64,000 nucleotides of DNA, taken from Candidatus Heimdallarchaeota archaeon (GTDB lineage: Archaea; Asgardarchaeota; Heimdallarchaeia; JABLTI01). The DNA is taken from NCBI GenBank assembly GCA_019056785.1, contig DXJV01000062.1:9441-73440 (forward strand), given 5' to 3'. Every line of letters begins with the position of its first letter. Within the stretch, counting starts at the first letter, position 1. Under the pieces are notes generated by a model. The model was not told where the DNA came from. It ran no database searches and worked only from the letters and a program-made list of their open reading frames with translations. Shown piece after piece: positions 33,979 to 35,433 of the stretch. The position numbers were made by a program, and so were the translations under genes.

Positions 33979-34698
33979 ATGGTATTTTATTGCTTAGTAT
34001 CTTTAGGAGGGCATGAAAAAATCATCAGTCTTTGTGTAGGAACATTTGACGATAAAAAGGGTCCGCAACCTGTTTATTCCTATGGTGTTTCCTCCAAAAC
34101 TGCTAAGAAAATTGTTTTGAAAGTTATGCTCGGTGCCTTCTCTTTTAGGGATAAAGAATATCACAAACCCGCTCGAAATGAGAGCATTTTAACTTTTCAA
34201 GAAGAAGATCTCGTTGCTTTTTCCACTTTTTTTGAAACTGATTGCAATACTTGTCGTGGTAAAAAAAAGCCTTTCTCTCTTTCCGCTCTTTTTCCTCTCG
34301 CCGAGCAGAAACGGCTTTATCGTTATGCCAGCAATCTTTCGATGCTTTTAAAGAAATTAGGGGCCATTTTCGAGAATACTTTCCAGCAATATGGTGAATT
34401 TCCTCCCTCTTTTCTTGCAACTATTCAAAAATTACTCGAACAAAACATTCACACGGTTTCTGTTACGTGTCCTGTTTGTTATAGTCGTAACGAAATTTTC
34501 GCTTTCAATTTTGAAGATACAACCATTTTTCTTCAAGAAATTCATGCCGGGGATATTTGTCCCCATGACTTTTCAATTTATTTTGATAAAGCGTTTAAGA
34601 TTTTACTTTATAAATATTCAAAAACTGATTTAAAAGAGCTTTCAATAAAATTAGCTCAATTAAAATCCCCTTATAATCATTTAATAAAAAGAGGTTAA
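33979..34698 (+). CDS. uDENN/longin-like protein with C-terminal Zn ribbon
   Basis: 'SLCVGTFDDKKGPQPVYSY' = FDxxxGP longin/uDENN strand motif; CPVC...CPH Zn ribbon. The start may be ATG 34013 with an indel in the A6 tract. Confidence 0.6.
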   Translation: MVFYCLVSLGGHEKIISLCVGTFDDKKGPQPVYSYGVSSKTAKKIVLKVMLGAFSFRDKEYHKPARNESILTFQEEDLVAFSTFFETDCNTCRGKKKPFSLSALFPLAEQKRLYRYASNLSMLLKKLGAIFENTFQQYGEFPPSFLATIQKLLEQNIHTVSVTCPVCYSRNEIFAFNFEDTTIFLQEIHAGDICPHDFSIYFDKAFKILLYKYSKTDLKELSIKLAQLKSPYNHLIKRG

Positions 34699-34704
34699 AA
34701 AAAC

Positions 34705-35433
34705 ATGGTGAGTCTGGAGCCAAGAGAGAGCAAAGAGAAACAGGGAAACAAGAAATCGACAAAACTTCAGACGGTGATTATTCCTGAAGAATTGGTAGAA
34801 CAATTTCAAAAAGCCGAAACAAAAGTTAATCAACATTTTGCAACAATGGAATGGGATCCCACCAATGGTCGCATCCTAATTGGTGGTGAACGCTATGTCT
34901 TCATACGAGCTTCTTCTCTTCGAATTGGTTTTCCACAAGCAATTGCTTCACTCTTAGAATTGGATGGTGGTATAAATAATCCTCTAATTGTGAAATTGTT
35001 ATATGAAATTGCAAAGTCACTCGGAAAGGCGGATGCAAAAAAATTCCATCTTTCTATGGGACTAGATGATCCTATCGAAAAATTGTCTACCGGTCCTATC
35101 CATTTTGCTTTCACCGGCTGGGCAAAGGTTGATATTATGCCTGAATCTCATCCTACACCTGATGAGGATTATTATTTGCTTTATACTCATCCTCAATCCT
35201 TCGAAGCCGACTCTTTTATCTTAAGTAAAGGTGAAACATCTGTTACCCCCATTTGTGTTATGAATGCTGGTTATTCTGCTGGCTGGTGCAGTGAAAGCTT
35301 CAGTTTGGACTTGGATGCGCAGGAAATCGCTTGTAGAGCCAAAGGAGATAAGGAATGCCTTTTTATAATGGCACCAAAAGACAAGCTGGAACAAAAAGTT
35401 GTTGAGTATCTCGATGCTAAGAAAAAGGAGTGA
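34705..35433 (+). CDS. Stand-alone XylR_N/V4R domain protein
   Basis: 'DPTNGRILIGGERYV', 'FAFTGWAKV', 'SFEA', 'PICVMNAGYSAGW', 'EIACRAKGDKECLF'. Confidence 0.85.
   Translation: MVSLEPRESKEKQGNKKSTKLQTVIIPEELVEQFQKAETKVNQHFATMEWDPTNGRILIGGERYVFIRASSLRIGFPQAIASLLELDGGINNPLIVKLLYEIAKSLGKADAKKFHLSMGLDDPIEKLSTGPIHFAFTGWAKVDIMPESHPTPDEDYYLLYTHPQSFEADSFILSKGETSVTPICVMNAGYSAGWCSESFSLDLDAQEIACRAKGDKECLFIMAPKDKLEQKVVEYLDAKKKE

Follow-up and report, generated by a model that had tools for sequence, protein, structure and literature searches.

What does a longin protein do when it is encoded directly beside a small-molecule sensor of bacterial type? The question is raised by two neighbouring genes in a 64,000-nucleotide stretch of DNA (hereafter the window, taken at its full length) from a Heimdallarchaeota metagenome-assembled genome (MAG), whose closest public proteins are 95–97% identical and carry the name "Candidatus Heimdallarchaeota archaeon". 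Eukaryotes use the FLCN/NPRL2-type longin fold to switch off Rag and Arf GTPases. Asgard archaea, the closest archaeal relatives of eukaryotes, have dozens of longin, roadblock, and small-GTPase genes, and the scattering of these genes hides which regulator acts with what. In this locus, a longin predicted to be of the GTPase-activating protein (GAP) class has a fixed genetic partner that can be recognised as a ligand sensor, and the control of such longins thereby becomes testable. The two genes are as follows.

33979–34698, + strand: gene 1, a longin and zinc-ribbon protein, 239 amino acids (aa) as called and about 225 aa if the start is at 34021 (open reading frame list, orthologs, and AlphaFold2 (AF2) model)
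34705–35433, + strand: gene 2, a stand-alone XylR_N/V4R small-molecule sensor, 242 aa

We propose that the pair is a sensor–longin signalling module and give this reading a probability of about 60%. In it, (i) the proteins of gene 1 and gene 2 would form a complex; (ii) a small molecule in the V4R pocket would alter the activity or the availability of the longin protein; and (iii) the longin protein, probably serving as a GAP or a platform, would act on an Arf/Rag-like small GTPase whose gene lies elsewhere. The histidine-kinase output of the bacterial sensor family would be replaced in this module by a longin. The folds, the motifs, the conservation of the operon, and the single clade of linked sensors are established by the data that follow.

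A conserved operon and its predicted complex

The two open reading frames lie on the same strand and are separated by 6 bp, as a sequence-only reading of the window had stated, and the gap contains an AGAGGT Shine-Dalgarno-like motif 5' of the second ATG. Because the gene downstream of the pair is on the opposite strand, gene 1 and gene 2 make up a bicistronic unit. A gene 1 homolog is found directly upstream of a V4R gene, on the same strand, in L001, L002/L003, L004/L005, L006, and the Hodarchaeota MAG L007; these pair-bearing loci represent at least five different neighbourhoods with varying flanking genes. Among 301 sampled genomes of the phylum, only the genus of the window (g1) has full-length gene 1 matches, in 8 of its 10 genomes, the two genomes that gave no gene 1 match being 64% and 69% complete. 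All eight have the V4R gene immediately downstream, with a spacing that ranges from a 4-bp overlap, which is frequent, to a few tens of bp. The sequence-only reading had asked for adjacency across Asgard genomes: the arrangement is not unique to this genome, and it is not Asgard-wide either, one genus and one Hodarchaeota MAG being its range.

The pair has been kept through considerable divergence, since gene 1 is 33–37% identical in genomes where the V4R protein is 64–71% identical. In an unrooted maximum-likelihood tree, the linked V4R proteins form one clade, with a core support of 100/99, or 96/75 when the Hodarchaeal copy is included, and a 99/91 branch divides this clade from all named bacterial sequences. 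The V4R proteins P0077 and P0105 fall just outside it; their neighbours, of 240 aa and 437 aa, are homologous neither to gene 1 nor to longins (hhalign probability about 0.2%). The tree fits a single origin of the pairing and, being unrooted, gives no direction of any transfer. Taken as a whole, the two genes form a conserved module that would be transcribed together and is probably coupled in translation. V4R-bearing open frames of 385–421 aa, which a scan of the class had turned up as possible fusions, all end at contig ends and were rejected as truncated genes.

Prediction of the gene 1–gene 2 complex gave a score of 0.52, and the best of three control pairs scored 0.00. Of 80 solved complexes, 58 reached the mark used, as did 2 of 110 mismatched pairs; the passes with a score of 0.60 or under comprised only 7 of these solved complexes and both of the mismatches that passed, and these benchmark counts hold only roughly here because our own alignments were used. 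The runs agreed in at least 94% of contacts, with a pLDDT (predicted local distance difference test) of at least 85 for the partner. The interface expected in the sequence-only reading is therefore returned by the prediction, at a score that tentatively suggests binding. Together with the operon evidence, this makes it about as likely as not, or somewhat likelier, that the two proteins associate physically.

Gene 1, a longin domain followed by a zinc ribbon

The gene 1 protein has no match of its own in Pfam or NCBIfam, and an exhaustive HMMER search of 1.84 billion representatives returned only 27 relatives at E ≤ 0.001. It is similar to Asgard proteins of 360–420 aa (E 1e-08 to 1e-11), two of which have sub-threshold Pfam Folliculin matches. 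The fold was examined in an AF2 model built on 10 orthologs (pLDDT 76.6; predicted template modelling (TM) score, pTM, 0.70), in which the following features are placed.

34021–34446, + strand: longin domain, about residues 15–156, β1-β2-α1-β3-β4-β5-α2-α3 (AF2 model, VIA-align, Foldseek, and Atlas)
34045–34065, + strand: FDDKKGP, the "GP motif", in the β1–β2 loop and at the start of β2 (β1 is residues 17–24 and β2 residues 28–35 in the model)
34255–34257, + strand: Arg93 of an RG motif in the β4–β5 loop, a candidate arginine finger (alignment)
34447–34617, + strand: Cys3His zinc-ribbon module, about residues 157–213, five β-strands, with the knuckles C164-P-V-C167 and C194-P-H196 (alignment and model)

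The modelled elements (strands 17–24 and 28–35, helix 39–54, strands 68–73, 78–88, and 96–106, and helical residues 107–155) have the longin topology. In an all-against-PDB comparison with VIA-align, the best match was the Lokiarchaeal longin domain 8yqg_B (Z 15.8, root mean square deviation 2.4, 142 residues aligned), followed by FLCN (6nzd_H, Z 12.3), the Lst4 longin (4zy8_C, Z 11.9), a GATOR1 chain (8fw5_C, Z 11.4), and C9orf72 (7o2w_A, Z 11.4); TRAPP and SNARE longins and roadblock proteins came at Z 8–10. The best Foldseek matches were GATOR1-complex chains and 8yqg, and the Atlas model of gene 1 has Folliculin, NPR2, C9orf72, and SMCR8 as neighbour clusters. Profile searches of the PDB with the gene 1 alignments found only the Lokiarchaeal longin 8yqg (E 0.002–0.003) and no FLCN, NPRL2, or SMCR8 chain. 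The Pfam Folliculin cutoff (PF11704, 23.3 bits) is passed by the ortholog P0125 (33.1) and by a 448-aa paralog in the same genome (29.8).

Both motifs that the sequence-only reading had picked out in this protein, FDxxxGP and CxxC...CxH, are present, as F23-D-D-K-K-G28-P29 and as the two knuckles listed above, the latter invariant in the orthologs. Across 22 Asgard longins, G28 never varies, and the conservation of D24 and of P29 is at least 90%. The G28–P29 pair opens β2, matching the placement by which the GP motif was defined in PMC12290439; according to the same study, the motif is found in FLCN, NPRL2, SMCR8, C9orf72, and a class of Asgard longins, and is absent from TRAPP, adaptin, and DENND-family longins. 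The earlier assignment of FDxxxGP to "uDENN/longin" domains therefore holds for longin, including the NPRL2/FLCN type, and is loose for uDENN. Because of the structural matches, the Atlas neighbours, the Folliculin matches of relatives, and the position of the GP motif, gene 1 is assigned, by fold and motif, to the FLCN/NPRL2/SMCR8 "GAP-longin" class. Arg93, a candidate arginine finger, does not vary among the six aligned orthologs that are linked to V4R, and most of the 22 Asgard longins have it too. Gene 1 does not have the full FLCN/NPRL2 architecture; what it has in common with these proteins is the catalytic-type longin domain only. The C-terminal DENN-type domain is absent from the model and the alignment, a zinc ribbon of about 60 residues being found there instead, and no second longin gene adjoins the pair in the gene tables of any pair-bearing locus (L001–L007). 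The longer paralogs of gene 1 have a DENN-like C-terminal half where the ribbon stands.

The 448-aa Folliculin paralog (L013:1399–2745, + strand; contig C31, about 78.8–80.6 kb) is convergent, at a distance of 23 bp, with a stand-alone receiver gene of the response-regulator type (L013:2768–3136, − strand; Response_reg, 2e-23), possibly another link of a longin to a bacterial-type signalling part. In a complete genome of another Asgard family (G038), longin domains like that of gene 1 are encoded by three genes in a row on one strand (C1:639114–642344; frames of 396, 382, and 173 aa), a tandem cluster of longin paralogs.

In the C-terminal module of gene 1, the CPVC lies between strands 157–163 and 170–176 and the CPH between strands 183–188 and 198–203 of the model, which gives two β-hairpin knuckles. 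Every gene 1 ortholog, and each of 22 copies of the module taken by itself, has the four predicted ligands, and an F, a D, and a Y are conserved as well. The module has the features of a zinc ribbon in the model, and zinc binding is putative. Folded alone it reached a pLDDT of 83.9. It has no family in Pfam. A Foldseek search against the PDB gave nothing at E ≤ 0.001, which is no proof of a new fold; the best VIA-align match was the sarcosine oxidase delta subunit (1vrq_D, Z 4.8), and the closest named Atlas neighbour was the bacterial CPXCG ribbon Zn_ribbon_21 (TM 0.50).

The same module occurs apart from the longin. In a genome survey, profile positions of about 135–235 matched alone in 5–9 places per genome of the Asgard family f14. 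Some of these modules are N-terminal in small soluble proteins with a conserved acidic C-terminal helix, and others form the cytoplasmic tail of receptor-like proteins with a signal peptide, an ectodomain, and a transmembrane segment; no V4R gene was found at any of the f14 stand-alone loci. Copies with the pattern CPxC...CxHxF..D..Y are located at L047–L060, for example L050:3650–4237 (− strand), L053:3983–4534 (+ strand), L051:2762–4360 (+ strand), and L051:4634–6202 (+ strand). The module is thus a portable, essentially Asgard-restricted, and apparently undescribed unit, which Asgard archaea have attached to longins, receptor-like membrane proteins, and small soluble proteins alike.

Two further features concern the start of gene 1.

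33955–33974, + strand: conserved upstream element TTGCC ... CTAATTAAT (alignment of eight orthologous loci)
34006–34023, + strand: GGAGG Shine-Dalgarno-like motif (34006–34010), then, 10 nt on, ATC (Ile15, 34021–34023), a candidate non-AUG start

The core CTAATTAAT is invariant or nearly so in the eight aligned loci, and the surrounding DNA varies; the element is probably a promoter of the operon of the BRE (transcription factor B recognition element)/TATA type. In all loci the box is followed about 32–40 nt later by GGAGG and, 8–10 nt after that, by an invariant AT(A/T/C) codon. Gene 1 likely begins at this conserved non-AUG codon, ATC 34021 in the window, because in seven orthologous loci (L001, L006, and L018–L022) the conserved N-terminus, including the GP motif, is in frame upstream of the first ATG, GTG, or TTG, within 36–44 open codons that contain no canonical start. 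The ATG at 33979, which lies 4 nt past the TATA-like box, is probably not the real start and may not even be transcribed.

Upstream of the pair, the window encodes a 1767-aa surface protein with S8 and C11 peptidase domains (28607–33910; L001:2352–7748). This synteny is found only in the closest relative, L001, and the surface protein is outside the conserved module. A PADLOC search for defence systems gave no match for the protein of gene 1 or gene 2.

Gene 2, a stand-alone sensor of the MopR type

The sequence-only reading had described the second gene as a V4R domain without a kinase or ATPase, closer to the XylR_N sensors than to Bet3, and this description proved correct. Gene 2 matches Pfam V4R with 35.6 bits (cutoff 31; E 1e-08) and contains no kinase, ATPase, or helix-turn-helix (HTH) domain. 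Its XylR_N match is sub-threshold (16.6 bits, cutoff 23; E 0.0067), but the XylR_N assignment is precomputed for many close homologs. Residues 41–229 match the NCBIfam MobR sensor region, the nearest solved relative by sequence is the phenol-sensor domain of MopR (E 6e-06 in the PDB search), and in the Atlas gene 2 lies closest to the V4R/XylR_N and "MopR family" clusters (0.94 and 0.93). The searches returned 459 homologs; the Asgard copies are 60–95% identical, and for many XylR_N/V4R proteins that stand alone in bacteria the identity to gene 2 is about 50% over 90% of the length.

35254–35358, + strand: V4R zinc-site residues C184, E207, C210, and C218 (alignment of 28 homologs)
34705–34770, + strand: Lys-rich N-terminal tail of gene 2, present in the Asgard copies and absent from bacterial homologs (alignment)

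All 28 homologs have C184, E207, and C210, and at least 90% of them have C218. These residues align with C155, E178, C181, and C189 of MopR, which we take to be the MopR zinc ligands, and gene 2 is accordingly predicted to carry a C-E-C-C structural zinc site. Judged by these sequence relationships, gene 2 is a sensor of the MopR/XylR_N type. The Lys-rich tail may dock to a partner or bind the membrane. The protein stops after the V4R domain, with no AAA+ sigma54-activator or HTH output; gene 2 is a stand-alone sensor and not a member of the NtrC-type activator family.

Bacterial members of the family are fused to PAS, HisKA, or LuxR outputs. Stand-alone bacterial homologs, about 50% identical to gene 2, are also encoded directly upstream of HisKA/HATPase kinases (L008/L009:4001–6028 and L010/L011:4001–6474), in one case with a 4-bp overlap; the layout suggests a split sensor–kinase arrangement for the bacterial XylR_N/V4R family. 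Since these homologs stand beside or are fused to signalling outputs, the V4R sensor family can be described as a detachable input module.

The genome contains other V4R genes. One (L014:796–2292, contig C52) encodes a 498-aa protein with a thioredoxin fold and two V4R domains and adjoins an AhpC/TSA peroxiredoxin gene (L014:2355–2804); it may be a redox-linked sensor. Similar frames of 500–560 aa are present in most genomes of the class, where this is the most widespread V4R architecture. Neither this protein nor a second V4R protein of 291 aa has a longin neighbour, and both were set aside as members of a pair.

Readings of the pair and known systems

In the sensor–longin module proposed above, we infer two elements, the ligand-gated effect and the GTPase target. 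Several observations weigh against the proposal. The contig of the window carries no small-GTPase gene, though the genome has 39 Arf-family matches, and the gene tables of the other pair-bearing loci contain none either. In eukaryotes, a GAP longin acts in a heterodimer with another longin protein, and the pair has no partner of this sort linked to it. Gene 1 of the window gives no Pfam Folliculin match at E ≤ 1, and its orthologs other than P0125 are under the cutoff; Arg93 is only a candidate equivalent of the catalytic arginines of FLCN, NPRL2, and SMCR8. The related V4R protein P0077, just outside the linked clade, has no longin neighbour, and the distribution is narrow: of the genomes examined, one Heimdallarchaeial genus and a single Hodarchaeota MAG have the pair. 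No longin–V4R fusion turned up when longer proteins were searched with the gene 1 profile, which counts as weak evidence. A stricter form of the proposal, in which the sensor directly controls an FLCN/NPRL2-class longin that switches an Arf/Rag-like GTPase in the Heimdallarchaeon, is doubtful. If true, it would provide a prokaryotic counterpart of the logic of GATOR1 and folliculin (metabolite sensor, then longin GAP, then Rag/Arf GTPase), as a ligand-gated longin GAP built from a bacterial sensor module and an archaeal longin.

Four other explanations were weighed, all of them less probable than this stricter form. The likeliest of the four, itself unlikely, is that the pair handles a small molecule without signalling: the V4R protein would bind or carry a hydrophobic metabolite or cofactor, and the longin protein would serve as a scaffold or chaperone with no GTPase involved. 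This would agree with the frequent annotation of V4R proteins as nothing more than "hydrocarbon binding proteins" and with the lack of a linked GTPase, but the same sensor family in bacteria is found beside or fused with kinases, PAS, and LuxR, and gene 1 keeps the GP motif and the conserved Arg that are typical of GTPase-directed longins. We consider it somewhat less likely still that the pair is a ligand-responsive regulator of transcription or nucleic acids (compare V4R-containing regulators of archaea, such as MsvR), with the zinc ribbon of gene 1 binding DNA, RNA, or the basal machinery and the V4R protein modulating it. The zinc ribbons of orthologs do match Zn_ribbon_Elf1 (E 0.0018) and Zn_ribbon_Brz (E 0.087), weakly and sub-threshold, the V4R part matches NCBIfam MsvR (E 3e-04), and the conserved upstream DNA element could be an operator. 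However, all three matches are far under the curated cutoffs, the pair lacks an HTH or any other domain for DNA binding, and longin domains are not known to bind nucleic acids. The occurrence of the same zinc module as a receptor cytoplasmic tail, with 5–9 copies of the module per genome in f14, is better explained by a protein-interaction module.

That the pair is a primitive TRAPP-like core, in which a longin and a Bet3-related subunit would form a guanine nucleotide exchange factor platform for a Rab-like GTPase, is improbable. V4R and TRAPPC3/Bet3 have a common fold and are thought to have a common ancestry, a Heimdall longin–TRAPPC3 fusion has been modelled (Tran et al. 2024, PMC10933270), and TRAPP longins are among the structural matches of gene 1. 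Their Z scores of 9.2–10.0 are nevertheless below the 11.4–12.3 of FLCN, Lst4, GATOR1, and C9orf72, and the GP motif of gene 1 is reported absent from TRAPP longins (PMC12290439). Gene 2, for its part, has no PF04051 match at E ≤ 1 in Pfam; it belongs with the XylR_N/MopR proteins, whose pocket scaffold and zinc site it conserves, and bacterial sensors are about 50% identical to it. A PF04051 search of the whole genome gave no match, but the control genomes gave none either, and the search is uninformative. The TRAPP-like pairing put forward in the sequence-only reading thus survives at the level of the folds, and gene 2 is no ortholog of a TRAPP subunit, nor, probably, is gene 1. Least probable of all, and hardly credible, is that the two genes are neighbours with no common function. 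The tentative nature of the predicted interface would allow it; against it, at least 10 genomes and at least five unrelated neighbourhoods preserve the adjacency, order, and strand of the genes, with a frequent 4-bp overlap, while gene 1 has diverged to about 25–35% identity.

The sensor–longin module is a real and apparently undescribed system of narrow distribution, and the narrow distribution favours a lineage-specific invention over a direct ancestor of the eukaryotic systems. It would represent a bacterial two-component input module rewired to a eukaryote-like output. A full-text literature search found no description of this operon or of the longin/zinc-ribbon architecture. In the report of Asgard longins with a GP motif and an arginine finger (PMC12290439, Traffic 2025), the words "V4R", "zinc", and "operon" do not occur. 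Asgard genes for longin, roadblock, and TRAPPC3 proteins as a rule do not share operons with GTPases, and no pair of this kind was described in that context (Tran et al. 2024, PMC10933270).

The closest known proteins are the Asgard Folliculin/SMCR8-type longins (PMC12290439). They resemble gene 1 in sequence, belong by structure to the same longin subclass, carry FDxxxGP at the same place and an RG motif in a loop, and are present in Heimdallarchaeia. They differ in their length of about 360–450 aa with an extra C-terminal domain, where gene 1 has the Cys3His ribbon, and gene 1 is locked in an operon with a V4R sensor. With the eukaryotic complexes FLCN–FNIP, GATOR1 (NPRL2–NPRL3–DEPDC5), and C9orf72–SMCR8, gene 1 has the catalytic longin fold (Z 11–12) and the GP motif in common, and the proposed concept is alike: a nutrient or small molecule feeds into a longin, which in turn acts on a small GTPase. 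By contrast, gene 1 has no DENN domain and no linked second longin, its GTPase target is putative, its membership is by fold and motif only, and the input would be a directly bound bacterial-type sensor and not one of the Sestrin/CASTOR/SAMTOR type.

Gene 2 resembles the "A" domain of MopR, PoxR, DmpR, and XylR and the bacterial stand-alone XylR_N–V4R proteins in domain composition, in the C-E-C-C ligands, and in the role of a detachable input, and it is about 50% identical to the stand-alone proteins. Unlike MopR, PoxR, DmpR, and XylR, it has no AAA+/sigma54 or HTH output; unlike the bacterial stand-alone proteins, which have a histidine-kinase neighbour, it is paired with a longin/zinc-ribbon protein, and the Asgard copies add the Lys-rich tail. 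The TRAPP core and the Heimdall longin–TRAPPC3 fusion (PMC10933270) likewise pair a longin fold with a fold of the V4R/Bet3 superfamily, but gene 2 falls outside the TRAPP subfamilies and gene 1 probably does too, the sensor keeps an architecture of the ligand-binding type, and the arrangement is an operon and not a fusion. The zinc module is similar to Zn_ribbon_21 (PF14255) in its two β-hairpin knuckles with four ligands and a CPxC first knuckle, and differs in being Cys3His, in its conserved HxF...D...Y extension, and in having no Pfam match. The GAP-class Asgard longin and the MopR-type V4R sensor are thus of known kinds, and the fixed wiring of sensor to longin and the zinc-ribbon module are what appears to be new.

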